Origin: an uncultured Candidatus Saccharibacteria bacterium
GTDB taxonomy: Bacteria; Patescibacteriota; Minisyncoccia; Phycocordibacterales; PALSA-1337
NCBI GenBank assembly: GCA_964406895.1
Contig: CAYOTK010000006.1
Coordinates: forward strand, 557 to 64,556
DNA: 64,000 nucleotides
Reading direction: 5' to 3'
Shown here: in pieces, positions 5,197-54,732 of the stretch
Position numbering within the stretch: the first letter of the stretch is position 1
Layout: every line of letters begins with the position of its first letter
Translations under genes and position numbers: made by a program
Notes under the pieces: model-generated
What the model was told of the DNA's origin: nothing
What the model saw: only the letters and a program-made list of their open reading frames with translations
The model's database searches: none

Positions 5197-5250
5197 GGCA
5201 CAATTCTAACATACATACACAATGTGCCAAATAAATATTATACTTGTATT

Positions 5251-8266: not shown

Positions 8267-8340
8267 TCCGCCCTCTAGGATTCGAACCTAGGACCCCAGA
8301 GGTATAAGCTCTGTGCTCTAACCAACTGAGCTAAGGGCGG
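8267..8340 (-). tRNA. tRNA-Ile with anticodon UAU (reads AUA)
   Basis: 74-nt cloverleaf on minus strand: acceptor CCGCCCT/AGGGCGG, D-arm GCTCAGTTGGTTAGAGC, anticodon arm CAGAG-CTTATAC-CTCTG (U33, anticodon TAT, A37), T-arm CTAGGTTCGAATCCTAG, discriminator A. Abuts recG stop. Confidence 0.75.
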
Positions 8341-8368
8341 GTTATTGGTTACATTATTATCAGTTTAA

Positions 8369-8415
8369 AAGTTCTGTGCTCGGTGCTTTCTAGCCAAAAC
8401 AGCTAAGGGCGGGTG
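8369..8415 (-). pseudogene. degenerate partial copy of the 5' half of the adjacent tRNA-Ile (pseudo-tRNA fragment)
   Basis: ctgtgctcggtgctttctagccaaaacagctaagggcggg aligns with ctgtgctctaaccaactgagctaagggcggg of the intact tRNA, and the flanking gggcgggt[tg]t..ttggtta is also duplicated. Confidence 0.4.
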
Positions 8416-8416
8416 T

Positions 8417-8440
8417 TTGGTTATTGGTTATTGGTTATTT
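8417..8440. repeat. tandem heptamer repeat (TTGGTTA)x3
   Basis: tttggttattggttattggttattt read directly. Confidence 0.5.
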
Positions 8441-8472
8441 ATGGTGAGCCTGTCGAACCATACCCTCATATC

Positions 8473-10380
8473 TTACTGATTTTTTGTCTTCAACGCAATT
8501 CCATGAACACTCAAGAAACCTTCATACTCATCTCGCTCTATAGTCTCCTTCTCTATCAACTTCTTGGCTACAGCCTCAAATACGAGACGATTGTCTATCA
8601 AAGTCTTCTCTGCTTTGACCTTAGCCTCATGCATAATCTTCGTAATCTCAGCATCAACCTCCGCTGCCACGCGCTCGGAGTAATCCCTGTCATTCACACC
8701 CATACCAAACAACACTCTTCCTGTCGGACTCTCGAGAGCTACCGGACCGAGCTTATCTGACATGCCGTACTGAGTGACCATACTCCTCGCAAGAGCAGTC
8801 GACACCTGCAAATCATTCGAGGCACCTGTTGTTATATCACCAAACATCATTTGTTCGGCCACATAACCTCCGAGAGAAACAGCGATGTCGTCCAAGAATT
8901 CACGTCTTGATTGCAATTTCCTATCTTCAATCGGTAATTTGAGTGTATAACCCGCCGCACGACCACGAGAAATAATTGAGATCTTATGTACAGGATCTGC
9001 ATTAGGTAAAACCGAAGCAACAATAGCGTGTCCCGCTTCGTGGTAGGCTGTTATTTCTTTTTCTTTCGCTGACAATATATGACTTCTCCTTTCCGGACCG
9101 AGCATTACTTTCTCGATCGATCTTACTAGATCGAATTGACCTATCTTTGTTCTTTCTTCTCTGGCGGCCAATATAGCTGACTCATTCATAAGTGAATACA
9201 AATCTGCTCCAGAAAAACCCGGCGTTCTTTCTGCTACCACCTGAAGATTGACGTCTTCTGCCAATTTCTTCTTGGATGCATGTATCTTCAATATTTCTTC
9301 CCTATCACTTCGATCTGGCAAATCAATAACTACTCTTCTGTCGAATCTTCCGGGTCTCAAAAGAGCTGGGTCTAGTACATCTGGTCTATTTGTGGCAGCC
9401 ATCACTATGACTTTTTCGTTTGGCTCGAAGCCGTCCATCTCAACAAGTATTTGATTGAGTGTTTGTTCGCGCTCGTCATTACCACCACCAACACCCGAAC
9501 CTCTTGCTCGACCTACTGCGTCTATCTCGTCTACGAATACGATAGAAGGTGCAGTATTTTTGGCTGCCCTGAATAAATCTCTGACCCTCGAAGCACCTAC
9601 ACCTACGAACATTTCTACGAACTCTGAACCAGAAATCGAATAAAAAGCGACATTTGCCTCACCAGCCACCGCTCTTGCCAATAATGTCTTACCACAACCT
9701 GGAGCGCCCATAAGAATAACACCCTTTGGAATTTCTGCGCCTATTTCTATGAATTTCTTTGGATTCTTCAAGAAGTCAACGATCTCTGCCAATTCTTGCT
9801 TTGCTTCTTTTGCACCCGCAACATCTTTGAAAGTTACTTTTTGTTTCTGATCATCGGGCATACTTATTCTGGCTTTTGATTGACTGAATGACAAAGCTTG
9901 CATTCCAGCCCCTCTCACTTGTCTCGATAGAAACCAAATGAAGAAAATCAAGAGCAATAATGGTGCGAGAAATGGCATTAGTAAACTAGCCCAATAAGTA
10001 AATCCGCTAGGCTCAACCACACTGATGGTGGTTGTTGATAATTTTTCTTCCTTGACCCCCAATCTAGAAAGAGTCTCTGTGATCGACGAATCATTTTCCT
10101 TCTGAGAAATTTTCACCGTGCCATCTTTGTATGCTGCAGATATTTTATTATCAGATATTGTCAACGACTGTATTTTGCCTGAATTGATATCGGATGCGAC
10201 CGTATTCAAAGATATTTTGTTTGATTGCTGATTGACATTAGAAAATTCATTGTATATTCCAGCAATAAGCAAGAAGACAATAATAACTATTGCTAGTGCG
10301 TTCAAAAAACGAAGTCCTGAAGACAGGAAACTATTACCCTTCTTACCTTTTGGGTTTTTATTCTTAGGATTAACGGGCAT
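8473..10380 (-). CDS. ftsH: ATP-dependent zinc metalloprotease FtsH
   Basis: N-terminal TM, AAA Walker [22 protein letters not shown] region, zinc-binding HEAGHAIV; 635 aa. Confidence 0.95.
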
Positions 10381-10442
10381 ATGTTTATATATGCTACTTT
10401 AGCTTCTTTTGAGCGTTGTGGCAAGGATTGAACGCTCAACCA

Positions 10443-11168
10443 CTATTTCACCTTCAGCGTAGACATTATTCCAAAGAAATATTCTTCTGCTCTACTAGGA
10501 ATAATCACGCCTGCAATTTCATAAGCTTTCTTATAATCAGCATTGATTGGTGAAAATTCTGGCACAAGAGGACTTGTAATAACAACTGTTTTATTAGAAG
10601 AGATAACTAAATAATAAATATTCAAGCCGCAACCTTCAACTCCAGGAGTTACATGATATCCACTATAAGGTCCGAACTTATATGGACTGTTGGAAACATA
10701 ATCCCATTCCGGCCAACCGCTAGTCTTCAAATATTCTCGAACGCTCTGATTGACAACTTTTATTGATACCTGGAAATCATTTAGAACATTAAGCATTGGA
10801 CCACCTCCTTTCATGTCACAAAAATCATAATGTTTATAAGGCACAGAATGAGAAACAGTAACTTCGCCGTTTTCTTCTTTCAGTGTCAGGATTGATGGAT
10901 AGTCAAAAGAAAAATTACTTCCAGAATATGACTGAATTTTTGAGACTGTAGATTGAACGCCCGCAGGAATGATCTGTGCATTATTGTCTTCCTGTATTTT
11001 GTTTACAATATTTTTTGGGATTTGAGTATTTACAAAAGAATCTTCAATGACTACGTCTGATTTCATCTCCACATTTGCTTTTCTGAAATAAAATAAACCG
11101 CCTGCCAGCAAAGCAACGATGATCACTAATAAAGATACTATTACATAATTTTTTTGTGTGTTGTTCAT
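10443..11168 (-). CDS. hypothetical membrane-anchored/secreted protein (241 aa)
   Basis: Single N-terminal TM helix (VIVSLLVIIVALLAGGLFYF) then soluble domain; no recognisable motif. Confidence 0.45.
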   Translation of the reverse strand: MNNTQKNYVIVSLLVIIVALLAGGLFYFRKANVEMKSDVVIEDSFVNTQIPKNIVNKIQEDNNAQIIPAGVQSTVSKIQSYSGSNFSFDYPSILTLKEENGEVTVSHSVPYKHYDFCDMKGGGPMLNVLNDFQVSIKVVNQSVREYLKTSGWPEWDYVSNSPYKFGPYSGYHVTPGVEGCGLNIYYLVISSNKTVVITSPLVPEFSPINADYKKAYEIAGVIIPSRAEEYFFGIMSTLKVK

Positions 11169-11233
11169 GAGGTGATTATATTATAAAGGGATGAGTAAGT
11201 AAAAATGAGAAATTAGAAAATTGCAATAATAAA

Positions 11234-11257
11234 CGGGAATCTCGCCTTACAGGCGCT
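11234..11257. repeat. 24-nt direct repeat copy (cgggaatctcgccttacaggcgct), partner at 11835..11858; distal boundary of an ssrA-associated islet
   Basis: 24/24 identity with 11835..11858. Confidence 0.6.
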
Positions 11258-11459
11258 CGGAGCTATTTTTTATTGTGGACTTGGTGAGCCAAAGTTGGAA
11301 CAAACTACATCCTTGGGTTTTTGAGGCGTCTGAAATGATTACAGGGGGCAGGAGGTTTCGGAAAAAGACTTACATCTGCTTAACAGTTAGTTATCCATTA
11401 ATCACATGATGAGATTAAAACTTACATAAATGAGAAAGACCTTCCTGAGAAAGCCATTT

Positions 11460-11760
11460 GAAGGTCAGTCTCATGAAGGTCTGGTCAGTGACATGTGTTA
11501 ATGTAACTCGCGATTTCCATGGCATACTTGCTGTCCAGGCTATCGCCAACTTCACCAACACACACGTCGTTTACTCTCCGAGCCACAAACCTTTGCTGAC
11601 TCGCATCCAACTGGGCATTTTCATTAACGCCTTCCCGGAGAAAGATAACGAACATTCGTCGGCGATTCTCAGAATGCGCACAAAGATCTGCCATATTCGC
11701 AAGAAACCTATCCGCTTTCATTTTTTCAGAAGGCATTTCACCTTGGTCCTGTTGTTTCTT
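11460..11760. other. GC-enriched (~48% GC) segment with overlapping candidate ORFs on both strands (11458..11946 +, 11485..11736 -); coding strand unresolved
   Basis: Base composition clearly above the ~35% window background; neither ORF has a recognisable motif. Confidence 0.3.
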
Positions 11761-11823
11761 TGGAGGCAGGAATACCTCAAAACTACTACTAAAATGTTAG
11801 CATGTATATACATAAAAGTCAAT

Positions 11824-11842
11824 AGTGGAGATGGCGGGAATC
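11824..11842. repeat. 19-nt direct repeat of the ssrA 3' terminus (agtggagatggcgggaatc), partner at 12361..12379
   Basis: 19/19 identity to the tmRNA T-arm/acceptor 3' end; the next 16 nt instead continue into the 11234 repeat. Confidence 0.65.
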
Positions 11843-11867
11843 TCGCCTTACAGGCGCTGTACAGGTC

Positions 11868-12131
11868 TCACATTTTCGTCTCAAAACCGTTTGCATACAT
11901 ATTTATCAAAAAATCCTTCTTTTCTCTACGCCACTTCTTTATTTGATTTTCCCTTTTGCGCGCCTCACTGAAAGTTAAATATTCCTCCAAAAATACAATA
12001 CTAAATCCACCAATCTTAGTAAAAGAAGCACCTCTTTTTGAGTTGTGATCATAAAGACGCTTTTGAGGGTCGTTAGAAACACCGACATACAATCGATTAT
12101 TCATATCACGTATCATATAAACAAATGGCAT
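11868..12131 (-). CDS. stand-alone GIY-YIG nuclease family protein (UPF0213-like, 87 aa)
   Basis: FVYMIRDMNNRLYVGVSNDPQKRLYDHN ... EARKRENQIKKWRREKK matches GIY-YIG (URI) domain motifs. Confidence 0.7.
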   Translation of the reverse strand: MPFVYMIRDMNNRLYVGVSNDPQKRLYDHNSKRGASFTKIGGFSIVFLEEYLTFSEARKRENQIKKWRREKKDFLINMYANGFETKM

Positions 12132-12362
12132 ATTATTAATATAAAAAATTATGGTTTTTAAATGTTAAAACGCGCAATCAAAGATCAAAAACATATGCAA
12201 AAATGTCCTTCGACTACGCTTCGATCATATTATAAGATAATACATAGAGTTCGTGCCTCAGCTTCGCTCAGGGCACTCGCCTCTATTGCAATTCTCAATG
12301 TTCGTGGCACATGGTGGTTTACCACGAGCGAGTCCTTCGCGATTAGCGAAGGACGAGTCGAG

Positions 12363-12733
12363 TGGAGATGGCGGGAATCGAACCCGCGTGCAATCGAGAT
12401 TTGTCGGTTACTTCTACGATGATATCAAACTTTATCCGCAAAGCGGTTTAACAAATGTGCCCAAGAAAGTTTGCAAAAAGCACAATTGCGATCTCTATGT
12501 TTCGGGTCTTGGAGTGAGAAGTTCCACTACCCTACATCCAAGTTATTACGCCAACACTACAGTTAGGATCCCTGCAGAGTGACGGCACTTAAACAAGTGC
12601 GAATGCGAAGTCCTTGGCTCCGAAATACGGAGATACAGAAGATTTAGCATTTATGGTTTCTGTCAGATTTACGAGTTAACAGTGCTCGCATCGCATGACC
12701 GGAAATGTTCAATTGTCTAGACCGATCATCCCC
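12363..12733 (-). ncRNA. ssrA: tmRNA (SsrA)
   Basis: 5' GGGGATGATCGGTCTAGAC..., 3' GCGGGTTCGATTCCCGCCATCTCCA (T-arm and acceptor with G3:U70 alanine identity pair), located immediately downstream of smpB on the same strand. Candidate tag ORF GCT AAA ... CTT GTT TAA. Confidence 0.8.
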
Positions 12734-12788
12734 AAACTTTATTCAATAACCAAAATTTGGTTATTGTTTATTGGTGTTTGATTATTAT

Positions 12789-13235
12789 TTACCTGTCAAT
12801 GAACTCTCTTCTAATTTCCCTATCCACTTCTCTCTTCTTTGTGGTTTCGCGCTTGTCGAATTTCTTTTTACCACGGACAACTGCAATACTTACCTTAACT
12901 AAAGGACCCTTATTATATATTGAAATTGGCACTATTGTCAAACCCTTACTACCCTCAGCATCAGCTAGACGTCGAATTTCATCTCTAGTCAGAAGTAGGC
13001 GGCGATTTCTTCTTGGTTCATAACCTTTCGGAGTATTGTTTTCCTGATACGGTGGCAAGAATATATTCACGGCGTAAGCTTCTCCCCCACGCACGATGAC
13101 ATAGGCGCCATCTAGAGAACCTTGGCCTTTCTTTATTGATTTAACTTCGAAACCATAGAGTTCGATTCCTGCTTCGTATTTGTCGATGATTTCATAGTTA
13201 AAATTTACCTTTTTATTATCTACGAAAGTTGTCAT
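12789..13235 (-). CDS. smpB: SsrA-binding protein SmpB
   Basis: 148 aa, FNYEIIDKYEAGIELYGFEVKSIKKGQGSLDGAYV typical of SmpB; adjacent to tmRNA. Confidence 0.9.
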   Translation of the reverse strand: MTTFVDNKKVNFNYEIIDKYEAGIELYGFEVKSIKKGQGSLDGAYVIVRGGEAYAVNIFLPPYQENNTPKGYEPRRNRRLLLTRDEIRRLADAEGSKGLTIVPISIYNKGPLVKVSIAVVRGKKKFDKRETTKKREVDREIRREFIDR

Positions 13236-42461: not shown

Positions 42462-43067
42462 TTATCCAACGATCTCCACTAATGTTCCCCTTCTTCCTGG
42501 AACTGCACCAGAAAGATATATTACATTCTCATCTTGATCAATATGCACAACTTTGAGATTTCTTACAGTGATCCTGTCACTACCCATTCTTCCCGCCATG
42601 CGCATACCTACAGGAACACGAGTACGCAAACCGCCACCAATAGAACCTGGCTCGCGCTCTGAGTGTTTCTGACCGTGAGAGCGAGGGCCTCCACCGAAAC
42701 CGTGTCTCTTGACGACACCTTGGAAGCCCTTACCCTTCGAAACGGCACTGACTGTAACCATGTCACCAATTGTAAACTGAGAAATAGATACAGAATCACC
42801 AACTTTCAGGGTAGGATTCGCTACTCTGATCTCTTTCAATGAAGCAAATGAACCTAGATCCTTGAAATGTCCCTTCTGTGCTTTGTTGATGCGATTTGGA
42901 TTGCGGCTACCTTCACCGATCTGTACAGCCTCATAACCATCACGAGTGACAGTTTTGACATCTGTAATGACATTATTCCTGATCGATATTGCTGTCACAG
43001 GCACAGCTGTTCCGGCAGCATCGAAAATCTGTGTCATATTAAGTTTTCTTCCCAAAATGAATTTCAT
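42462..43067 (-). CDS. rplC: 50S ribosomal protein L3
   Basis: MKFILGRKLNMTQIFDAAGTAVPVTAI; 201 aa. Confidence 0.9.
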   Translation of the reverse strand: MKFILGRKLNMTQIFDAAGTAVPVTAISIRNNVITDVKTVTRDGYEAVQIGEGSRNPNRINKAQKGHFKDLGSFASLKEIRVANPTLKVGDSVSISQFTIGDMVTVSAVSKGKGFQGVVKRHGFGGGPRSHGQKHSEREPGSIGGGLRTRVPVGMRMAGRMGSDRITVRNLKVVHIDQDENVIYLSGAVPGRRGTLVEIVG

Positions 43068-43083
43068 GGTATTTCTTTATTTC

Positions 43084-43458
43084 TTACATCATCTTCACAT
43101 CTATATTGACTCCCGACGGCAAACTCATATTGGTCAAGGCTTCAATGACTTTTGGATTTGGATTGATAATGTCAATAAGTCTCTTGTGAACTCTCATTTC
43201 GAATTGTTCACGTGAATTCTTATCGATGAATGAGGAGCGGTTTACTGTGTATTTCTTGATTTCTGTTGGCAAAGGTACTGGTCCATGTATTACAGCATCG
43301 TATCGTGCAGCTGTATCCATGATCTGCTTCAATGAAGCATCGAGAATTTTGTGTTCATATGCTCGAACACGTATTCTAAGCTGATGAACAACTCCGTCAA
43401 CCTTAACCTTCTTCTTTTTTGTTTCTTTTGTAGCAGTCATGTTTTTATTACTAAGCAA
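43084..43458 (-). CDS. rpsJ: 30S ribosomal protein S10 with N-terminal extension
   Basis: Core [21 protein letters not shown]; 124 aa. Confidence 0.9.
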
Positions 43459-44635
43459 CTACCTTTGTAACGACTCCAGCACCTACGGTCTTACCTCCTT
43501 CACGAACTGCGAAACGCTGTTGATTTTCTAGAGCTACAGGAGCTACTAGTTTGACCTTGAATGTAATTGTATCTCCAGGCATGACCATTTCTACCTTCTC
43601 AGGAAGAGTAACCTCGCCAGTAACATCTGTTGTTCTGATATAGAACTGAGGCTTGTATCCTGTGAAGAATGGAGTGTGGCGACCACCTTCTTCTTTCTTC
43701 AAAACGTAAACTTCTGCCTCGAATTCTGTGTGAGGCTTGACTGAACCTGGTTTTGCCAATACTTGTCCACGAGAAACATCATCCTTTGCTGTACCACGTA
43801 GTAGCAAACCAGCATTGTCTCCTGCCAAACCTTCCTTTAGAGACTTGTTGAACATTTCGATACCTGTAATAGTTGTCTTCGTAGTATCTTTGAAGCCGAT
43901 TATTTCGACTTCTTCACCTACTGTGATCTTTCCGCGTTCAATACGACCTGTAACTACTGTTCCACGACCTTCGATAGAGAATATATCTTCGATAGGCATA
44001 AGGAATGTTTTGTCGACTTCACGAACTGGAGTTGGGATATAAGTATCGAGAGCATTCATAAGCTCATCGATCTTTGCTGTCCATTCTGCTTCACCGTTCA
44101 AGGCGCCTGTTGCTGAACCGCGAATAACTGGAACGTTTTTACCGTCGAATTGATTCTTGGTTAGGAGCTCACGCACTTCTTCCTCAACAAGGTCAATAAG
44201 ATCCTTTTCTGGTACCAAGTCACACTTGTTCAAAAAGACAATGATCTTTGGAACACCAACCTGACGTGCTAGCAATACGTGTTCGCGTGTCTGAGGCATA
44301 ACACCATCTGTTGCTGATACAACAAGAATAGCACCGTCCATTTGAGCGGCACCTGTAATCATGTTTTTCACGAAGTCAGCGTGTCCTGGACAGTCGATGT
44401 GAGCATAGTGACGAGATGCAGACTCATATTCAACGTGTGAAAGTGAGATTGTTACTGTCTTTGTTGCATCACGAACTGTACCTCCCTTTGTAATATCTGA
44501 GTAAGCTTTGACTTGAGCCATACCCTTCTTGGACTGAACAGCCAAGAGCGCCGCTGTCAAAGTAGACTTTCCGTGGTCAATGTGACCAATTGTTCCTACG
44601 TTAACGTGTGGCTTTGTACGATTGAATTCTGCCAT
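43451..44635 (-). CDS. tuf: elongation factor Tu
   Basis: [22 protein letters not shown]-motifs; 394 aa. Confidence 0.97.
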
Positions 44636-44868
44636 ATTATTATTTTATTGCTTTGGCTCGCATCGCATGGGCGTGAAATAACAACCATACGACGAGATCC
44701 AAAGATAAATTATATTAGTTAATAAAACGCAATTTTATTTAGCGTAGCGTCATGTTAACACACGCTATCATTTATTGCAAATTCTCTATATATCAAGACC
44801 TTACGCACTTCACCCCATACAAGAAGAGTAATAAAGAATACCCTACTCTATGTATGGGGTGTAAATGC

Positions 44869-46359
44869 TTATCTAAACAAACCTTGAACGGCGTCGAGAA
44901 CACTAGCTGACAATGAATCTTTTCCTGTTTTACCTGTTGGACTTGAACTTGGTACAGGAGTTGCTGTTGCTGTAGGGGTTGGTATCAATTCTGGATTGAT
45001 GATTGTTACCATCTGAGCACTCTTGCCTGAAGCAGATATTGATTCATCTGGACCAATCTGAACATATACGAAGTATCTAGCATATGGAACTGTCTTTGGT
45101 ACAGTCCAAACATATGAGTACATAACAGCAGGTGAAATATCTGGTCTTGTATAATCCAATATATCGATTTTCTGTCCGCCATTTACAGGAATAAGTTGTA
45201 TTCTTCTAACTTCCTGTGCCGTACTCAATGACCATTGAATGACCATTTTCTCGCCAACTTGGAAATAAGTACCTCCTGTGACTTGGCTTGTAGGTGTGAG
45301 AACTGTGAGAGCGGGAGAATTAACATTCTTTTCGGCTGTCTTTGAATTTGTTGTTACAAGAGGAAGTTGACTGTTGGTCACTCTGAAATATGAACTTTCT
45401 CCGTATGTCTGTGCATCGGCAGAATAAACCTTGACCTTATAATATCCTGTTGCAAGATTTGAAGGTATTGTCCAAGAATAATCTGTTCTTTGATATGGTG
45501 CTGTATAAGCTGGATTCTGATAAACACTTACGGTTAAGCCATCGTATGATTCTAGGACTATTTTGTTTATGCCTATTTCAGTTGAAGACCAATTAATGTT
45601 TAATTTCTCTCCGGGAGCAAATATTGTCGAAGAATTCTTGCTATTTACAGGTGTTAGAACTGTTATTGATGTTGTTTTCTTGGCTGGAATTATTGTGGTG
45701 CTAGTTACAGCAGGCTGATAATTGACAGTAGAAACTGGTGTTGGTGTATATACAGGAGTTGGGGTTTGTGTAACAACAGGTTTAACTACTGGTTGAACCT
45801 TATTTGCTGGAACTGGAGTTGGTGTGTAAGAAGGTGTTGGAGTTTGTTTTGCAACATTATTGGCAACACTATTACCACACAATTCTGCATTGATTTTGCC
45901 ACGAGTAAGAGGTCCGACGAATCCTGTAGTAGGCAAACCCTGACTTGCTTGATATTCCATGACTGACTGTGCGGTTGCTTCATCATACACACCATCTCTA
46001 CTCGAAGCACCGTAAACATCCCAATTGTAAAGTCCTTTAGAATCTAGAAATTTCTGAAGACTAGTCACAGACTCCCCCACACTGTCGAGGCCCATATTGA
46101 CGTTGAATATTGCACAAGAATTTTCTTTCCTTGGAATATTAGTCTGGGTACAAATATAGCCTTCCGGACAGATATTTTGATTGGAAACATTGTTTGGTAC
46201 GCACGTATAACCTACAGGACAGACAAATGTCGAAGGTGTACATACATATCCAGCAGGACAGACGAATACCGACTGTGCTTCAGCCTTTGTATTGGAGCCT
46301 AATATAACGAAACAAGTAACGATCAAGACTGGAATCAAATAAAGTGAAAATTTTTTCAT
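44869..46359 (-). CDS. secreted protein with Cys-rich N-terminal repeats, PG_binding_1-like domain and PT-rich linker
   Basis: Signal peptide MKKFSLYLIPVLIVTCFVILG; repeats CPAGYVCTPSTFVCPVGYTCVP; LQKFLDSKGLYNWDVYGASSRDGVYDEATAQSVMEYQASQGLPTTGFVGPLT resembles the peptidoglycan-binding domain (pfam01471); TPTPSYTPTPVP linker. Confidence 0.5.
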   Translation of the reverse strand: MKKFSLYLIPVLIVTCFVILGSNTKAEAQSVFVCPAGYVCTPSTFVCPVGYTCVPNNVSNQNICPEGYICTQTNIPRKENSCAIFNVNMGLDSVGESVTSLQKFLDSKGLYNWDVYGASSRDGVYDEATAQSVMEYQASQGLPTTGFVGPLTRGKINAELCGNSVANNVAKQTPTPSYTPTPVPANKVQPVVKPVVTQTPTPVYTPTPVSTVNYQPAVTSTTIIPAKKTTSITVLTPVNSKNSSTIFAPGEKLNINWSSTEIGINKIVLESYDGLTVSVYQNPAYTAPYQRTDYSWTIPSNLATGYYKVKVYSADAQTYGESSYFRVTNSQLPLVTTNSKTAEKNVNSPALTVLTPTSQVTGGTYFQVGEKMVIQWSLSTAQEVRRIQLIPVNGGQKIDILDYTRPDISPAVMYSYVWTVPKTVPYARYFVYVQIGPDESISASGKSAQMVTIINPELIPTPTATATPVPSSSPTGKTGKDSLSASVLDAVQGLFR

Positions 46360-46486
46360 ATAATATTGTGGGTTTTGTTTAATTCGAACCCAATATAATA
46401 ATGTGCGCATCATATCATAAATCTAGAAAAAATCAAAATAATAAAAGCTCCTTTCGGAGCTTTTATTATTCGAAGAATTAGTACTA

Positions 46487-49400
46487 TTAGAACGTAAACC
46501 TAAGGAACTTAAGCATCAAAGTCCAAACAGAAGCTGTCTGATATTCACCAAATACACTTGATACAGGAGACGATGTTGGACGAGGTGTTGTAGAAGGCGT
46601 TGGAGAATATGTCGAAGTTGGATAATTGTAATTTGGACTAGGAGTTGATGTTGTTGTAGGTGACGCAGTAGTTGTTGGTGTAGGTGATGTTGTAGGAGTA
46701 GAAACAGGAGCAACATAAGTTGTAGGAGTTGGAGTACTTGTAACTACCGGTGCTGGAGAGTAAGTAGCAGTCGGAGAATATGATGGCGTTGGCGTTACAG
46801 TAGTATTCACAGTTTTTGTATCAACAGTGTTTACGTCTTTGGCAGCACTCTTGCCTCCAAACATTGCGTATAGGGACAAATTCTCTAATCCACTCCTTAT
46901 ACTCATATTGTTCGTGACATTTGATGAATTTCCATAGAATATGCTTGTTATTTTATATGAAGCATAACCAGCAACACCTGAATTCATCAAAACACCATTA
47001 TATTTGACGACTCTGCTTGTGTTTGAAGGTATCACTATATAATTAGCACTATCTCCTGCAACTGTTGCGGGAGTATAACTATTGTCAGCAAATGAAACCG
47101 TAGCTGTGTTTGGACTTATAACGGTCACAATCTCATTACCGACATGTTTCTTGCTCATAAATATATCTTTGTCTCCATTATTATTGACTGTAAACGTCAT
47201 TGAGAATGGATATGCGACAACTACATTATTCGACATTACCGGATCACCGAAACTTGTGTTGACACTAGATATATTAACCCCACCCTGAGCAGTAGAGCCG
47301 GCAAATGTTACAACACCCGAATACAACACCGGCTTCAATACAACTTTCATATTATTGAAGTTTCCATCAGTAGCTGTGACATTGGCATTTGAAGCATACA
47401 AAACAACTTCAGCGGATGATTTATTCAAGATATTATTGGTATTCTTAGCAACCACTCCATATATAGTAACTGGTACCCAAGTATCTGTGGGCAATGGTGC
47501 TGCCATATTACTGAATACTATTTTCTGACCCTTTTCTGTTTTAATGATAGTATCAATTGAATCATACTGATATGACTTATCACCTATCTTCACATAGACA
47601 CGATCGAATAGTTTATTAACATTACTACCCTTCCAGTTTGGACTTATGGCATTCACATTCAACTTTAATGAATTGAGCACTGATGACAATCCTTCTGATT
47701 TTATATCGAATATTGCTAATACAACATCGCTAGTATTTTGCGTAGAAGAAATATTTACAATTCTAGCTGAAGGATTAGCAGGATCAAGCCTGAAAGTTAG
47801 AGAACCAGATTTTGCATTTTCTGTAATTGGTCTGTTATCTTCCGGAACAACATTACAAGACTTATTATTTAATGCTTCTCTGGTAAGAGGACCGACACTA
47901 CCAGTTGCTGTTATATTTACAGAGTTTTGAAAACCCTTTACTGCTGCGGTTGTAGACGGGCCGTAGTAGCCTTTTTGGGTCAAATCCTTAGACAAGAAGC
48001 CTAGTTTAATCAATAATTCCTGCAAAGTAACCACTTCTCCACCTGTGCTTCCCTCATCCATGTTGGTAGTAAGTTTCAAACACTGTGGAGTTGTACTAGC
48101 AACTCCTCTCACAATGATTCTTGTACTAGATCCAAAAGCGTATGCATTTCCTGGGAAACGTTCATAGAAGTTAACAGATATTTCTTTGGTTGTAGGATTA
48201 CTATTGAAGACTTGCAAAGTCATTGCAGGAAGTGAACGAGGATTGAATGACTTGGACACATTACATATGTTCTTGTTGCTTTCTGTGGACTGTAACCAAT
48301 CTGCCCTAACACCTTGAGGACATACAGCCATCAATTCTGTACTACTTGCATTACTGTGCGCAGTCATGGAGAGGGTTGTAGTTGCGCCACTTGAGATTTC
48401 TTTTGGTGTGGCGGATATGAAAAGTGCTTCTGAAACAGTGGGGCTTGCAAGAGAAATCCTATATCTATTGACCGCCACTTGTGTAATCGCATCATAATTA
48501 CCTGTATCTTCGCCTGGATTTAGATAACCCTCTTTGATCAACTGATTCTGTAATGTCTTGACTCTCTCACCGCTGGATCCAAATGATAAATTGTTAATCA
48601 ACGAATCTGGAATAGGGGTTGGTTTGGGTAATGGAGTTGGAGTTGGGGGTGCCTTTCGAGGAATAGGTGTGCCTGGTTTGTCTTCTGAATTTGTTATTTC
48701 TCCATAATAAAAACCCCAATAATCAACATCCCAAACGTCTGGAGTTATATCCGCAGTATATAAGACTTTATTAATCGCCCCAGACATATGCAGATCTTCT
48801 GCTTTTTTATTTTTTGAAAGAGGTAAAATAATATAACAATAACCCGCTTTATCTTCTTTAGCACTGACGCTACCATTTATATCGTTCAGTTTCATACGTA
48901 TATCTTTACAAGGTATTTTTCTACCAGTGTTTTCAAGAACAAATTGACTTTTCTCTTCATTGAAGACTGGCTTAAGTTCTGATACAGTTATAGGAATTCG
49001 GATCGAATAGATTTTGTTTGGTTTTGCATCTGAATCTGAATCTATCGCTACATATAAAATATTGAGGCTTTGATTTTTTGAGAAATGGAAAACCTGCCCA
49101 TCAAACTCAACTTCAGAGTATGTTTTTCCAATTTCAAGGTTAGGACGTTTATCGTCCCTTGGTGAATTATACTTTTCATCTATATTAGTGGTCTTATCAT
49201 GGTAAAACATTGTGCCCTTTCTAGTAGTAACTGATACCTCTTTCCCAGCTACAGGATAATAACTTTGTCTATAATCATAATTAGTGTTAATGTCACTCTT
49301 AAAAATATATTCTCCGTTTAAATTTTTTGCATAAGAATTTTCAATCGTGTCACGTTCATACCTCTCTACACGATAGAATCCTTCCGAATTTTCTATAATT

Positions 49401-49606
49401 TCTATTTTACTTTTAGAAATTTTCGGTCTAGTAATCTCGTTAATATAATCTGATGAGTATTTTGTTACCATATACAGCCCTGCTTTGCCAGGATCAAAAG
49501 CATATGCGACATTAGGAGCTTTTAAAATAATCACTCCACAAAAAACAAACACACCAATTAGAACAAGACTGGTTAAACTTTTCCTCACCGATATTATATT
49601 TTTCAT
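46487..49606 (-). CDS. large secreted/surface protein with two PG_binding_1-like domains and extensive C-terminal PT/ST-rich region
   Basis: ~1040 aa; signal peptide MKNIISVRKSLTSLVLIGVFVF; GSSGERVKTLQNQLIKEGYLNPGEDTGNYDAITQVAV and GSTGGEVVTLQELLIKLGFLS...; C-terminal TPTPSYSPTATYSPAPVVTSTPTPTTY... low-complexity. Confidence 0.5.
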   Translation of the reverse strand: MKNIISVRKSLTSLVLIGVFVFCGVIILKAPNVAYAFDPGKAGLYMVTKYSSDYINEITRPKISKSKIEIIENSEGFYRVERYERDTIENSYAKNLNGEYIFKSDINTNYDYRQSYYPVAGKEVSVTTRKGTMFYHDKTTNIDEKYNSPRDDKRPNLEIGKTYSEVEFDGQVFHFSKNQSLNILYVAIDSDSDAKPNKIYSIRIPITVSELKPVFNEEKSQFVLENTGRKIPCKDIRMKLNDINGSVSAKEDKAGYCYIILPLSKNKKAEDLHMSGAINKVLYTADITPDVWDVDYWGFYYGEITNSEDKPGTPIPRKAPPTPTPLPKPTPIPDSLINNLSFGSSGERVKTLQNQLIKEGYLNPGEDTGNYDAITQVAVNRYRISLASPTVSEALFISATPKEISSGATTTLSMTAHSNASSTELMAVCPQGVRADWLQSTESNKNICNVSKSFNPRSLPAMTLQVFNSNPTTKEISVNFYERFPGNAYAFGSSTRIIVRGVASTTPQCLKLTTNMDEGSTGGEVVTLQELLIKLGFLSKDLTQKGYYGPSTTAAVKGFQNSVNITATGSVGPLTREALNNKSCNVVPEDNRPITENAKSGSLTFRLDPANPSARIVNISSTQNTSDVVLAIFDIKSEGLSSVLNSLKLNVNAISPNWKGSNVNKLFDRVYVKIGDKSYQYDSIDTIIKTEKGQKIVFSNMAAPLPTDTWVPVTIYGVVAKNTNNILNKSSAEVVLYASNANVTATDGNFNNMKVVLKPVLYSGVVTFAGSTAQGGVNISSVNTSFGDPVMSNNVVVAYPFSMTFTVNNNGDKDIFMSKKHVGNEIVTVISPNTATVSFADNSYTPATVAGDSANYIVIPSNTSRVVKYNGVLMNSGVAGYASYKITSIFYGNSSNVTNNMSIRSGLENLSLYAMFGGKSAAKDVNTVDTKTVNTTVTPTPSYSPTATYSPAPVVTSTPTPTTYVAPVSTPTTSPTPTTTASPTTTSTPSPNYNYPTSTYSPTPSTTPRPTSSPVSSVFGEYQTASVWTLMLKFLRFTF

Positions 49607-49773
49607 ATTATTAAATAATTTATATAAATTCATCTTAAAAAAATAAGTACTGAATACAATTATACACCTCTCGTCAGTAATCACAAAAAATTTTATCCCC
49701 TAATATTCCCCAACAACAAAGAGCGGTATTACCGCCCCTTGTTGTGAGAACCTATTTAAATAGTCATGAAATA

Positions 49774-51918
49774 TTATTTCCTCTTCTCAATAATCTCCTG
49801 TGCGACATTGGCAGGAACAACCTCATAATGATCGAATTCCATCATAGCACTACCCTGTCCAGAAGTCATAGAGCGAAGTTGTGTAGTGTATCCGAACATT
49901 TCTGATAGAGGAACAGTAGCGCGAATAGAGAGTACTTGGCCTTTTGGTTCTGAACCTTCGACTTGACCCCTCTTGGCTGCAATCGAACCATTGATATCAC
50001 CCATATATTTCTCAGGAGCGACGACTTCGAGTTTCATTATAGGCTCAAGAATAACAGGTTTTGCCCTCTTGGCTGCTTCTTGGAAAGCCTGTGAAGCAGC
50101 AATCTTGTAAGCAATTTCTGATGAGTCAACATCGTGATATGAACCATATGTCAATTCACAGGAAACATTTACCATCTTGAATCCAGCAACAATACCGCGA
50201 TCCATGGCTTCATGTACGCCCTTTTCGACGGCAGGAATGAATTCGTTAGGAATAACACCTCCCTTGATAGAGTTGACGAATTCGAAATCATCATAACGCT
50301 TGACGTTCTTGGGGATTTTCTCGCCTTCAACGAGTTTTTCCATAGGTTTGATATTGATCTTAACGTGACCGTATTGACCCTTACCACCTGTCTGTTTGAT
50401 ATATTTGTGTTCAGCCTCTGCAGTGCCAAGAATAGTTTCGCGGTATGCTACTTGAGGTTCACCAACATTGGCCTCAACACTGAACTCTCTCTTCATACGA
50501 TCAACCATGATTTCGAGGTGAAGCTCTCCCATACCAGAAATTATAGTTTCGCCTGTTTCTTGGTTTGAAGAAATCTTGAAAGTAGGATCTTCGTTGGCAA
50601 GTTTGCGCAAAGCCATACCCATTTTCTCCTGATCAGCTTTTGTTTTTGGCTCAATTCTAAGAGAGACGACAGGCTCAACGAACTTGATAGCTTCTAGGAC
50701 TATAGGATTGGTCTCATCACAGAATGTGTGAGATGTAAGAGCATCCTTGAGGCCTACAGCGGCAGCGATTTCTCCGGCATAGACCTTCTTGACCTCTTCT
50801 CTTTCATTGGCCTGAAGTCTAACAATACGACCGAGGCGTTCTTTCTTGCCTGTAGTTGAGTTGTAAATATAAGTTCCTGCCTCAATAGTACCTGAATAAA
50901 CTCTGAAGAATGTTAGCTGTCCAACGAATGGATCGTTCTGGAGTTTGAAAGCAAGAGCAGCAAAAGGCTCAGCGTCAGAAGCGTGTCGCACTACTTCCTC
51001 ACCAGTGTTTGGGTTGATACCTTTGACAGGAGGCATATCTATAGGGGAAGGAAGATAATCAACGACAGCATCGAGTACTAGCTGAACACCCTTATTCTTC
51101 AAGGCAGAACCGGTGAAGACTGGGAAAATCTTACATGAAATGACTGATTTTCTAACAACTTTCTTCAACTCATCAATAGAAATCTCTTTACCTTCCAAGT
51201 ATTGAGACATGAGAACATCATCGTGCTCCACTATCTTTTCTATCATATTAGCGCGATGTTTCTTGGCATCTTCGAGCAATTCTGCAGGAATGTCTTTCTC
51301 AATAACTTTTTCACCCATTTGGCCTTCAAAATAATAAGCCTTCATCCTCATCAAATCTACAACTCCAGAATGTTCACCTTCCAAACCTATAGGAATCTGG
51401 AATGGCACGGCGTTTTTGTTTAGTCTTTCTAGTATGGACTTGAATGACTTGTCAAAAGAAGCACCCATTCTATCCATTTTGTTGATGAAACAGAGTCTAG
51501 GAACATTACCCTCATCTGCATAACGCCAATTGGTCTCTGATTGAGGCTCTACACCTGCTACACCGTCGAAAACAACCACCGCTCCATCGAGCACTCTTAG
51601 AGATCTTTTTACCTCGGCTGTGAAATCGATGTGTCCTGGCGTATCAATAATATTGAAGCGAACTTTCTTTGAAGTATCAGAAACTGGCATGTATGTAGGA
51701 TTCCAGAAACATGTGATGGCAGCGGCTGTAATAGTAATACCCCTCTCTCTTTCCTGTTCCATCCAATCTGTGACTGTTTCTCCTTCATGCACCTCACCAA
51801 TCTTGTGAGTCATGCCTGTATAGAAAAGCACTCTTTCACTAGTTGTGGTTTTTCCGGCATCGATGTGTGCGATGATTCCGAAATTTCTAACTCTTTCCAA
51901 TGGGTAATCTCTGTTCAT
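49774..51918 (-). CDS. fusA: elongation factor G
   Basis: [32 protein letters not shown]; 714 aa. Confidence 0.97.
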
Positions 51919-52003
51919 ATAATAATAAGTAAATAATAAAAAGCACTAGGCCTTGTTGCGTATAAGATACAGCAAAGTCGCTTATTTAGCAATACGATAC
52001 TTG

Positions 52004-52915
52004 CTATTTGGATATATAGAGAGATGAGTTAACAGTAGATCCTTGAATTTGATCGGAGCTATTGAAAGCTTGAAGTACAATTGTTGCTTGCCTTGGTGTA
52101 GCTGTTGGCTCAGAATTTACGTAACCCACGATATAATTTTTCACTCCTCCTGATGACACAATCTTTTCCTTTGAACCACAAGCATCTCCTGAAGTTATTG
52201 GGTTACCACTTGAATCATATTTATAGGCCTTAATATTGGTATCGCATTTAATTTCTAGAGTGAAATACGAAATCGGGAATGAATAATTGATAGAATATGT
52301 AACCTTCTTTCCAGCAACACCTGACAATGTTGTTGCTGTTGAATTTGAAGATACTGTTGGTTTTAGAACCGTGGTCGCGCCGAACATCCCAAATGTATTG
52401 GTCGTAGGAACGGTACTTGTATTACCCACAGTTGTATTAGATGTAGAATTCGTAGCAGTATTTGTAGATGAGTTGGTCGACGTGTTAGTCGTTGTATTTG
52501 TGGTCGTATTTGTATTTGTATTCGAAGTGGTATTGGTGGTTGATGCTTTTATTTGGACCGGTGGGACCTGCACAGGAGGTAAACTAGTAGTAATAGTCGT
52601 AGTAGCCTTTATGGTAGGAGGAATTACTGGTGGTATTTCAATAGGAATAATTTTTACTTGCGTCGTTGTTGATGTTGTGGCCACAGTGCCGTCTTTTTTT
52701 AGGGAACTTAATAATTTCAATAATTGCTCCCTTCGTGCTTTCAATATCTTCAATTTGTTTTCACTGTTCAATCTCTTCTCTTTCAAATATTGTAATCTCT
52801 CCGAGGTAGTACTAGCTGTACCACTAACACTTTTTACTGATGATATGAACGAGAATATGACACCGAGAATCAACAGCAATCCTATTTGATAAAGTAGGCG
52901 TCTATGATTTTTCAT
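52004..52915 (-). CDS. secreted protein with coiled-coil segment and T/N-rich low-complexity region
   Basis: Signal peptide MKNHRRLLYQIGLLLILGVIF; TNTTSNTNTNTTTNTTTNTSTNSSTNTATN repeats. Confidence 0.45.
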   Translation of the reverse strand: MKNHRRLLYQIGLLLILGVIFSFISSVKSVSGTASTTSERLQYLKEKRLNSENKLKILKARREQLLKLLSSLKKDGTVATTSTTTQVKIIPIEIPPVIPPTIKATTTITTSLPPVQVPPVQIKASTTNTTSNTNTNTTTNTTTNTSTNSSTNTATNSTSNTTVGNTSTVPTTNTFGMFGATTVLKPTVSSNSTATTLSGVAGKKVTYSINYSFPISYFTLEIKCDTNIKAYKYDSSGNPITSGDACGSKEKIVSSGGVKNYIVGYVNSEPTATPRQATIVLQAFNSSDQIQGSTVNSSLYISK

Positions 52916-53029
52916 AGTAATAGTTTAATAATTAATTATACTAATAATAGCACCTATACATAAAAATATAAACAAAAAACGCTCATCGATATACTTTGAG
53001 CGTTTTTTGTTTTTGAATTTTGAGCGTTT

Positions 53030-53500
53030 TTACCAGGCAAAGTGAGCGAAGGCTTTGTTTGCTTCGGCCATTTTGTGGACATTTTCTCGCTTCTTGACTG
53101 CTTCACCTTCATTCTTAGATGCTGATATGATCTCGTCTGCTAGTTTATCAGCAATAGGCTTGCCTTTCTTCGAGCGAGCGGCCTCTATGATCCATTTCAT
53201 GGACAAAGACTGTTTACGTTCTGGACGGACTTCTCTTGGAACTTGATAGTTGGCACCACCCACTCTTCTTGAACGAACTTCCATAGCGGGTGTTGTATTC
53301 TTCAAGGCCAATTCGAATACTTCAAGAGGATTTTCGACTTTGGCTATCTCTTTTATTTTATTCATGCAATCGAAGACAATATTTCTGGCAACATTCTTCT
53401 TGCCCTCTTCCATGACATAGTTAATAAACTTAGATATTTTGAGTGAGTTATATACCAAATCAGGCTTCAATTCTCTCTTTATTTTTATTTTTCTTCTCAT
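53030..53500 (-). CDS. rpsG: 30S ribosomal protein S7
   Basis: 156 aa; ...[31 protein letters not shown]... Confidence 0.9.
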
Positions 53501-53513
53501 TGTATTTTATTTA

Positions 53514-53936
53514 TTAACTATTCTTATTTTCTTTTGGCCTTTTATTGCCGTACTGACTTCGACCTTTTCTGCGCTTCTCTACTCCTGCACAGTCAAGCAC
53601 ACCACGAACCACTGAATAACGTAGACCTACGTCCTTCACACGACCACCTTTGAGCAAAACAACTGAGTGTTCCTGTAGATTGTGTCCTTCTCCTGGAACA
53701 TATGCTGTAACTTCAACACCGTTAGTCAAACGTACGCGAGCGATCTTACGAATAGCTGAGTTAGGCTTTTTTGGAGTCTTAGTTGTTACCTTGACGCAAA
53801 CACCTCTTTTGAAAGGTGCGGGAAAGAAACTAGGACGATTTTCAATTGTGTTGAAAGTACGGGTCAAAGCGATGGACTTTGATTTCCTTTTGAAACTTAC
53901 TCTATTCGACTTTGTTAGTTGATTTATTGTAGGCAC
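53514..53936 (-). CDS. rpsL: 30S ribosomal protein S12
   Basis: [20 protein letters not shown] ... [19 protein letters not shown]; 140 aa. Confidence 0.95.
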
Positions 53937-54120
53937 GGGCTTTATTATTGATTATTTTATAATTATTAATAATTTCCAAGATTGAATTCTTCACAATGTC
54001 TGATATGAGAATCCATATATTATATGGAGTATCAGGCAAAGTTACTCAACCTTGAAGAAACGAACCAATCCTTATTCAGGATTGCAATTGACATTAACAC
54101 AATAGTCCTCAATTAGCAAA

Positions 54121-54732
54121 TTACATGAAACCCACGCCAGTAATAAGGTGGAATAAGAAAGGAATGATAGGCGAAATGATCTGCCACAAGAAGAATACTA
54201 CGACTAGAATAAATATTGTTGAGTATTTTTCGAGCACCATGCGGAATCGACCGTATTGATGTGGGAGTATAGAAAATAGTATTTTAGAACCATCGAGCGG
54301 AGGAAGAGGTATTAGATTGAAAATTGTAAGGACTATATTGATAACAACAATATATGAACAGACAATTACAAAAGCACTAAGTGCACTAGTATCGATATTT
54401 GATAATCTTATAATAACTCCGAAAACCAAAGCCAATATAAGATTGGACATAGGGCCAGCTAGCGATATCAAGAATTCACCCATACGCATATTCTTCAAAT
54501 TATAAGGATTATATGGCACGGGTTTGGCCCAACCAAAAGTAAAACCGGCCAATGACGTTATAAGAGGGATAATAATTGAACCAACCGGATCCAAATGTTT
54601 CAATGGGTTCAAGGATAATCTACCCTGTTTCCTAGCTGTTGGATCACCTAGAATATCTGCCATATAACCATGAGAAACCTCATGGATAACAACGGACATA
54701 ATCAATATAATTATTGTAAGAATAGTAAACAT
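54121..54732 (-). CDS. site-2 protease family (peptidase M50) membrane metalloprotease
   Basis: HEVSHGYMA (HExxH) in first TM, 203 aa multi-TM. Confidence 0.7.
   Translation of the reverse strand: MFTILTIIILIMSVVIHEVSHGYMADILGDPTARKQGRLSLNPLKHLDPVGSIIIPLITSLAGFTFGWAKPVPYNPYNLKNMRMGEFLISLAGPMSNLILALVFGVIIRLSNIDTSALSAFVIVCSYIVVINIVLTIFNLIPLPPLDGSKILFSILPHQYGRFRMVLEKYSTIFILVVVFFLWQIISPIIPFLFHLITGVGFM

Follow-up and report, generated by a model that had tools for sequence, protein, structure and literature searches.

In Escherichia coli, the str operon (rpsL-rpsG-fusA-tufA) is one transcript. These four genes, all on one strand and in the classical str order, are also present in a 64,000-nucleotide (nt) stretch of contig CAYOTK010000006.1 from an uncultured member of the Patescibacteria (assembly GCA_964406895.1; this whole stretch is hereafter the window). 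Unlike the canonical operon, the cluster contains three extra genes, terminator-like hairpins follow rpsG and fusA, fusA and tuf have conserved promoter-like spacers upstream, and the rpsG-fusA and fusA-tuf junctions are variable in 80 relatives. The order on the minus strand is rpsL-rpsG-ORF303-fusA-ORF1039-ORF514-tuf-rpsJ, followed by rplC, rplD, rplW, and rplB, where the three open reading frames (ORFs) are predicted to encode envelope proteins. It is fairly probable that these three genes lie at boundaries between transcription units, which are sites of gene gain and turnover across the clade, and not within one str operon.

Gene-gain hot spots between core genes have reportedly been established for many bacterial species, in work by Oliveira, Touchon and Rocha from 2017. 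The locus described here resembles such hot spots in that a few fixed core-gene intervals hold variable cargo across lineages. It differs in that the flanks belong to a translation-factor and ribosomal-protein cluster, no tRNA or integrase gene is involved, and the cargo leans toward exported proteins, especially those with a PG_binding_1 domain. In the literature searched, we found no account of a str cluster that is broken up in this way, with the breaks serving across a clade as insertion hot spots that favor wall proteins, and nothing that combines Patescibacteria or Parcubacteria with the str operon, fusA/tuf, or ribosomal operon synteny. The fragmented str context is conceptually a version of the core-gene hot spots already known and does not overturn existing knowledge, and the proteins belong to known kinds, namely PG_binding wall proteins and stalked immunoglobulin-like (Ig-like) surface proteins.

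Boundaries between the core genes in the window

The genes rpsL (53514-53936) and rpsG (53030-53500) form a tight pair, the first core unit. They are followed by ORF303 (52004-52915), fusA, which encodes elongation factor G (EF-G; 49774-51918), ORF1039 (46487-49606), ORF514 (44869-46413), and tuf, which encodes elongation factor Tu (EF-Tu; 43451-44635) and is tightly followed by rpsJ. All of these genes, and the features between them, are on the minus strand. The NCBIfam scores of EF-Tu (671-679 bits), EF-G (TIGR00484, 1061 bits), and uS7 (rpsG_bact, 192 bits) are far above the cut-offs. A mechanical ORF list starts ORF1039 at a GTG (49684, 1065 amino acids [aa]), and gene callers and homologs place the start at the ATG at 49606. 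For ORF514, all homologs and a 45-nt invariant upstream stretch favor the ATG at 46359 as the probable start (497 aa). An initial annotation, made from the DNA letters and an ORF list, had described three secreted proteins encoded among core translation genes of one strand, and its coordinates, gene identities, and composition are borne out.

The rpsG gene is followed by a hairpin (52970-53012) with 16-nt perfect arms (I16) and a U-run (folding free energy -20.6 kcal/mol, z -8.05). In the related loci L083 and L082 the stem sequence differs and the pairing is kept. A putative promoter upstream of ORF303 (52944-52972), identified in a consensus scan, has -35 and -10 boxes with a TG extension, and its -10 region is conserved in the same two loci. 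The 85-nt spacer between ORF303 and fusA (51919-52003) is 94% identical among the window, L083, and L082, despite a synonymous divergence (dS) of 0.7-2.4 in the flanking coding sequence, and its motif is recognizable in L088; this spacer probably serves as promoter or leader of fusA. A second hairpin (49705-49751; -27.7 kcal/mol, z -7.56) comes after fusA; its U-rich stretch is partly within the 3' arm, and its stem shows compensatory changes in L082. ORF1039 is preceded by a promoter-like TTGTGA-16-TATAAT sequence (49659-49686; 10/12 match), conserved in L083, and is followed by a canonical intrinsic terminator (46437-46470) with 15-nt perfect arms (I18; -20.9 kcal/mol, z -5.42) and then UUUUGAUUUUUU. 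This terminator is conserved in L083 and L084 and absent in L082. Between it and the ATG of ORF514 (46360-46436) are a promoter-like site (46409-46436) and the 45-nt invariant leader. The hairpin after ORF514 (44811-44861; -27.4 kcal/mol, z -3.9) has no U-run, and two of its pairs are compensatory in L082. Upstream of tuf, about 150 nt with promoter-like boxes (44636-44800) are conserved at near 100%, including a long, fully conserved leader hairpin (44644-44709; -26.4 kcal/mol, z -5.2) that belongs to no Rfam family. Rfam returned no match within 43000-54500 at E values up to 1. An apparent hairpin is present at the same place in the tuf leader of L007, with a different stem sequence.

Codon adaptation to the translation genes of the window is 0.55, 0.59, and 0.67 for the inserts versus 0.66-0.76 for the core genes. 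Among the other genes of the window, ORF303 falls at the 16th percentile, ORF1039 at the 49th, and ORF514 at the 78th, and the core neighbors at about the 78th to 93rd.

These features bear on the proposal in the initial annotation that the placement couples envelope-protein expression to the most highly expressed operon. Under that proposal one long str transcript would include the three genes, envelope output would be tied to growth rate and the strongest promoter, and the hairpins would be attenuators or stabilizers. The genes are on the same strand throughout, the gaps are only 73-233 nt, the ORF303-fusA junction has no terminator-like structure (its fold equals that of shuffled sequences, z -0.3), and no canonical U-run accompanies the hairpins that follow fusA and ORF514, all of which suit a single transcript. 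However, canonical hairpins with U-runs follow rpsG and ORF1039, the stems after rpsG and fusA covary, conserved promoter-like spacers precede fusA and tuf regardless of the preceding gene, and the codon percentiles of ORF303 and ORF1039 are unlike those of their neighbors. With its hairpins, promoter-like spacers, and three extra genes, the cluster departs from the classical single transcription unit, which is contiguous and free of internal terminators and promoters. A single str transcript is therefore unlikely, and the coupling proposal is not supported in its original form, given the terminator-like hairpins, the promoter-like or conserved spacers, and the ordinary codon adaptation. It survives in a weakened form, as possible co-transcription of ORF303 with fusA and read-through of the non-canonical hairpins.

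Accessory genes at the same junctions in related genomes

The best EF-G relatives (60-87% identity) are exclusively metagenome-assembled genomes (MAGs) of Patescibacteria. The closest matches carry the labels Taylorbacteria, Zambryskibacteria, Nomurabacteria, and Kaiserbacteria, and the window is accordingly placed in the Paceibacteria/Parcubacteria. An identical 15.5-kb contig was found in a Logan assembly (SRR12487045).

To survey the junctions, we measured the gaps between core genes in the 10 kb on either side of fusA from 80 related species. Gaps longer than 300 bp are absent between rpsL and rpsG (0/64) and occur once between tuf and rpsJ (1/52), whereas they are present at 27 of 67 rpsG-fusA junctions, 47 of 55 fusA-tuf junctions (25 of these gaps exceed 1 kb and 12 exceed 3 kb), and 16 of 48 rpsJ-rplC junctions. 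An interrupted fusA-tuf junction is thus the usual state in this clade and no accident of the window. A scan of the 110 nt that follow each stop codon for a hairpin with a T-run recovered the same pattern, with such structures after rpsL in 2/64, rpsG in 20/67, fusA in 32/74, tuf in 3/52, and rpsJ in 22/52 cases. Large insertions are mostly found in relatives with an EF-G identity of at least 67%. Long "fusA" matches in some loci were considered as inteins and rejected; pieces of the EF-G query cross-match the adjacent EF-Tu G-domain.

The cargo is diverse. It includes secreted proteins, the longest of which has 2829 aa, whose modules are of the FN3, Kelch, TIG, subtilase, or cupredoxin type. 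Proteins resembling type IV pilins are also encoded, along with toxin-antitoxin pairs, genes for purines and pyrimidines, one ORF6N protein, and one IS200-like ORF. ORFs with a single anchor or secretion signal are more frequent in the gaps (27/95, 28%) than elsewhere (64/378, 17%; p = 0.014), and no tRNA gene is present in any gap among 60 related loci. Most cargo ORFs are co-directional with the cluster (73/95), as a shared transcript would have it, but this proportion is no higher than in the flanks.

Several loci illustrate this range. The rpsG-fusA cargo of L003 (9229-9876) and L020 (9077-9925) is type IV pilin-like with an N_methyl motif, one of the two proteins also carrying a laminin-G/ConA-like lectin domain. 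In more distant members of the candidate phyla radiation (CPR; EF-G identity 60-64%), a small conserved ORF lies between fusA and tuf (L062 9837-10247, L071 12189-12599, L076 4570-4959, L065 12107-12415, L078 13929-14297, and others). It gives weak, sub-threshold matches to Phd/YefM or RelB antitoxins and has no obvious adjacent toxin. The 6.7-kb fusA-tuf gap of the Zambryskibacteria MAG L004 holds an IS200/IS605-type transposase-like ORF (3808-4239, motif YHLVWGTKYRRK) and toxin-antitoxin pairs; some of the cargo at this junction, at least, is mobile. In L048, the closest relative in the genome collection (EF-G 87%), fusA is followed by two secreted proteins (9840-12732), with FN3 repeats and CPxGYxC repeats, and then by rpsH, rplF, rplR, rpsE, and secY onward. 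This place lacks tuf and the first half of the S10 cluster, owing either to a rearrangement or to an assembly error.

PG_binding_1 ORFs are concentrated downstream of fusA, where they account for 6 of 234 ORFs versus 3 of 1993 elsewhere in the 80 loci (odds ratio 17, p = 8e-5); the six are from five species (L007, L010, L011, L019, and L025). This excess could reflect an ancient resident gene that has diverged, or the placement of abundant wall proteins near strongly transcribed DNA. In the former case, a PG-binding gene would have followed fusA since early Paceibacteria and changed by rapid evolution and domain shuffling, so that apparently unrelated insertions would be partly orthologous, with other cargo added around it. 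Several of the encoded proteins do share a layout of signal peptide, PG_binding_1 near the N-terminus, and variable remainder, and L048 has its CPxGYxC-repeat secreted protein after fusA. Evolution at the locus is also fast, as seen in ORF303 (42% identity at an EF-G identity of 86%) and in the N-terminal domain of ORF1039 (48% between near-identical strains). Against such an origin, a PG_binding gene occupies this place in only about 10% of the loci with both fusA and tuf, no similarity is detectable between lineages outside the PG_binding module, and the architectures differ widely (cupredoxin, TIG, FN3/Kelch). Further, the nearest distant homologs of ORF514 (P0004 and P0005, 28-33% identity) are at a different locus, and in many gaps the genes found are of toxin-antitoxin, metabolic, or transposase-like type. 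We therefore regard descent from one early resident as doubtful and favor repeated gain and turnover at the unit boundaries.

The three genes of the window have themselves been retained among close relatives. Orthologs of all three are in the same positions in L082, L083/L091, L084, L089, and L090, and the inserts have orthologs in at least five other assemblies. ORF303 is found between rpsG and fusA in L082, L083, L089, and also L088, whose ortholog is 42% identical and whose EF-G is 86% identical to that of the window. In close relatives the core proteins are 96-100% identical and the inserts 40-94% identical, with synteny kept. Compared with L083 or L082, the inserts are 53-90% identical over aligned codons, with dS of 0.3-2.4 and a ratio of nonsynonymous to synonymous divergence (dN/dS) of 0.07-0.32 (0.07-0.12 for ORF303 and 0.12-0.13 for ORF514) versus 0.007-0.04 in neighboring core genes. 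Since orthologs are in place and dN/dS is in this range, ORF303, ORF514, and ORF1039 are functional, fast-evolving genes, and they are under purifying selection. A dS reaching saturation further indicates that they have resided here for a long time. The ORF1039 ortholog of L090 appeared to be disrupted, which was traced to a 100-N scaffold gap in its Pro/Thr (PT) repeat.

A recent mobile island inserted into the str cluster, or spurious low-complexity ORFs, would account for the toxin-antitoxin pairs, ORF6N protein, and IS200-like ORF in the gaps of some relatives and for the low complexity of the PT and Thr/Asn (TN) tracts. However, gene, tRNA, and repeat scans of the window region found no integrase, transposase, tRNA, or flanking direct repeats, and its GC content (0.34-0.44) is the same as in the rest of the window and genome. 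The arrangement is also kept in relatives at dS of 0.3-2.4, the Pfam matches exceed their thresholds, and the dN/dS values are well under 1, which makes this explanation highly improbable. The initial annotation had named two outcomes that would undermine it, namely domains failing in profile searches and genes missing from this position in all relatives amid mobile-element signatures. Instead, the domains are confirmed, the genes are in place in relatives, including ORF303 at 86% EF-G identity, and mobile-element signatures are lacking.

Domains, tails, and candidate glycosylation of the three proteins

All three proteins begin with a basic n-region and a hydrophobic stretch of 14-20 residues (identified by eye; Kyte-Doolittle windows of 2.7-3.3), which in ORF514 and ORF1039 is followed by the AXA-type motifs AEA-Q and AYA-F, respectively. 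Their Pro/Thr/Ser tracts and Thr/Asn tract are seen in the translations and also as PT-codon repeats. These putative export or anchor segments and the Pro/Thr/Ser/Asn tracts would fit the earlier description of the proteins as secreted and rich in such tracts.

ORF514 consists of a predicted signal peptide, three CPxGYxC cysteine repeats (46141-46263; repeat D7), a PG_binding_1 domain (PF01471; 45895-46077, aa 113-173), a PT linker, two Ig-like (Kre9/KNH-like) domains, a second PT linker, and a tail. Its homologs P0001-P0005 carry PF01471 and PF10342. ORF1039 has a predicted signal peptide (aa 1-36), an orphan variable N-domain (aa ~38-310) followed by a PT linker, a first PG_binding_1 copy (aa ~336-388; 48443-48601) followed by a beta region, a second copy (aa ~509-582; 47861-48082), a C-domain of about 310 aa (aa ~600-912) common to a Paceibacteria PG-binding family, and a PT/ST tract (46562-46819). 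The PG_binding_1-like domains proposed earlier for two of the proteins are confirmed by the PF01471 profile, at 44 bits in ORF514 and 76.7 bits for the two copies in ORF1039, above the Pfam cut-off of 23.

The same three-helix module of about 60 residues is found in known PG_binding_1 proteins, such as the Zn D-Ala-D-Ala carboxypeptidase of Streptomyces albus (1LBU), an L,D-transpeptidase-family protein (4LPQ), amidases and endolysins (4XXT and 7RUM), and SleB. In those enzymes the module directs a catalytic domain to the cell wall, whereas no catalytic domain was detected in ORF514 or ORF1039 by Pfam, NCBIfam, or PDB searches, all of which compare sequences. Instead, the module is joined to Ig-like domains, Cys-repeat modules, an orphan domain, and Pro/Thr linkers. 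The PDB matches of ORF1039 are confined to the PG_binding module; NCBIfam matches to SleB and hydrolases do not extend beyond it and are well under the cut-off.

Residues 510-912 of ORF1039 align (hhalign probability 99.7%, E 1.9e-26) with a Paceibacteria family (A10) of ~600-aa proteins described as "peptidoglycan-binding domain-containing" (P0008, P0009, P0011, P0018, and P0020), which also carries the CPxGYxC motif of ORF514. Unlike the genes described here, those of the family are not in the str cluster and lie next to an LCAT-like gene upstream of rplJ-rplL, and ORF1039 has in addition the orphan N-domain, a second PG_binding copy, the long PT tract, and the C-terminal tail. In L094, L095, and L097 (~8001-13000), the ~600-aa family is beside an LCAT-like protein of 860-950 aa, directly upstream of rplJ-rplL, which is a second case of wall proteins next to ribosomal protein genes. 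Together with the PG_binding excess after fusA, this hints at a recurring association, a point in favor of the single str transcript considered above.

The N-domain of ORF1039 is hypervariable. An exhaustive phmmer search of 1.84e9 representatives with this domain returned only its own cluster, the L082 ortholog (41%), and one borderline match. The window and L089 are 96-97% identical in nucleotide sequence on both sides of the N-domain stretch; within it (window 48771-49493, aa ~38-280; L089 7680-8390), there is no nucleotide match and the protein identity is 48%. Judged from these alignments, the domain is swapped in a cassette-like manner between near-identical strains. In L082 the ORF1039 ortholog (8275-9897) is only 540 aa long. 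About 500 internal residues are gone, including the second PG_binding copy and the C-domain, along with the terminator after the gene. Still present are the N-domain and the first PG_binding copy, as well as the PT tract and tail.

ORF303 has no Pfam or NCBIfam match. Its AlphaFold2 (AF2) model has a predicted membrane helix at residues 2-27, a long helix at residues 37-74, a stretch at residues 76-181 with a predicted local distance difference test score (pLDDT) below 50, and a beta domain at residues 187-301 with a pLDDT of about 80. The low-scoring stretch of about 100 aa is Thr/Asn/Pro-rich and disordered. In this model the protein appears to be a membrane-anchored stalk in which a disordered Thr/Asn/Pro tract connects a helix to an Ig-like head. 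Foldseek returned only generic Ig-like sandwiches for ORF303 (best E 9.6e-4, TM-scores 0.2-0.6) and no specific function.

The C-termini of ORF1039 and ORF514 are conserved. The 23-residue tail of ORF1039, SVFGEYQTASVW[T/S]LMLKFLRFTF (46490-46561), and that of ORF514, DSLSASVL[D/Q]AVQGLFR (44872-44920), do not vary among orthologs, although synonymous changes are numerous, and this invariance extends to L082, where the rest of ORF1039 is only 40-53% identical. Tails of the type (Q/S)(T/L)ASV(W/L)xxhxxh follow Pro/Thr stalks, and similar ones are present on unrelated secreted proteins, namely a 437-aa protein in L003 (12325-13638), a 691-aa protein in L007 (12318-14393), P0016, and P0006. NCBIfam models of sorting signals (LPXTG, PEP-CTERM, GlyGly-CTERM, and others) match neither the full proteins nor six isolated tails at E values up to 10. 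A regular expression for the tail motif recovered, among 1356 non-redundant ORFs, the four source proteins and one false positive (a transmembrane helix), thus giving no independent support, and "ASV" within the last 26 residues is not enriched overall. From their conservation, the tails could be an undescribed anchoring or sorting signal, which we put forward as a lead only.

Actinobacteria use a Pmt/Ppm1 pair to O-mannosylate Sec-exported proteins rich in Ser, Thr, and Pro. A gene set of this type, a GT-C protein O-mannosyltransferase (PMT) and a family 2 glycosyltransferase (GT2) resembling polyprenyl-phosphate sugar synthases, is present in the genome. The PMT-family (GT39) homolog (3757-5196, minus strand) matches PF02366 (135 bits) and PF16192 (157 bits) in one protein, and scores 50.6 bits against an NCBIfam equivalog cut-off of 800. 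The GT2 gene (~5200-6036, plus strand; PF00535, 76 bits) is divergently oriented from the PMT gene, and its best NCBIfam matches (ArnC, PgfS, AglJ, and PpgS) are all below cut-off. The GT39/GT2 pair that the initial annotation placed at 3757-6036 is thus present according to Pfam. As in Actinobacteria, a PMT and PMT_4TMC protein and a GT2 occur together with putatively exported Thr/Ser/Pro-rich proteins. In contrast to the actinobacterial pair, the PMT and GT2 here are a candidate system, encoded about 40 kb from the three proteins. By analogy, the PT, ST, and TN tracts of the three proteins are plausible O-glycosylation substrates. No full-text paper was found that combines "Patescibacteria" with "protein O-mannosyltransferase".

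Elsewhere in the window are a tRNA-Ile gene with anticodon UAU (8266-8340) and a tmRNA gene (12362-12733) with the tag AKSSVSPYFGAKDFAFALV. Most bacteria read AUA with a lysidine-modified CAU tRNA, and a tRNA-Ile with UAU is unusual.

Proposed organization and its significance

In the organization that we favor, the str/S10 cluster of this clade would be split into rpsL-rpsG, fusA, tuf-rpsJ, and then rplC onward. The three genes would occupy the unit boundaries, each one behind a hairpin that ends the core unit before it, and with a promoter-like element of its own. The rpsG-fusA, fusA-tuf, and rpsJ-rplC junctions would tolerate and accumulate accessory genes across the clade, and the present cargo would have been resident since at least a genus-level ancestor; that it evolves 5-10 times faster than the core genes would be in line with exposure at the cell surface. 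All three proteins would be exported by Sec to the cell envelope. ORF1039 and ORF514 would be non-catalytic, modular wall proteins, held non-covalently on peptidoglycan through PG_binding_1, where they would display beta-rich or Ig-like modules on Pro/Thr-rich spacers, each with a short conserved C-terminal tail.

Several observations weigh against this organization. Terminator-like hairpins are commoner where cargo follows than at uninterrupted junctions, and they may have come with the cargo and not earlier. ORF303 and fusA, whose junction is the sole one without a terminator-like structure, may be one transcript, and the hairpins after fusA and ORF514, with no clean downstream U-run, are possible stabilizers or processing sites. 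Sigma-70-like sites show no excess (41 versus 35.3 +/- 6.7 in shuffled sequences), with the limit that this consensus may not be that of the CPR. The export signals were judged by sequence inspection, plus the AF2 helix at residues 2-27 for ORF303. The AF2 model of ORF1039, from a three-sequence alignment, has a mean pLDDT of 28 and could thus hide a catalytic fold.

A more far-reaching version is only a tentative suggestion. The fusA-tuf junction, together with rpsG-fusA, would be a long-standing, selectively maintained home of fast-evolving, peptidoglycan-anchored surface proteins. Their output would be partly tied to transcription of the translation factors, through ORF303-fusA read-through and leaky hairpins, and they would carry an undescribed C-terminal signal in the form of a short amphipathic tail. 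If true, this would mean a new envelope-sorting or anchoring system in the CPR, plus a strain-variable tip domain for interaction with hosts or phages.

The CPR/Patescibacteria are believed to be attached to host cells in life, and hardly any of their surface proteins have been characterized. The locus offers a concrete set of putatively wall-bound, fast-evolving surface proteins that, by analogy with the actinobacterial system, are plausibly glycosylated. Within this set, the swapped domain of ORF1039 is a candidate host-contact or phage-receptor module, and the conserved tails are a testable candidate for a C-terminal signal. The supposedly universal str/S10 cluster would be broken up in a large clade, with the breaks as preferred sites for accessory genes, which bears on operon-based annotation, on the use of marker-gene synteny in MAG curation, and on where reduced genomes keep their flexible genes.

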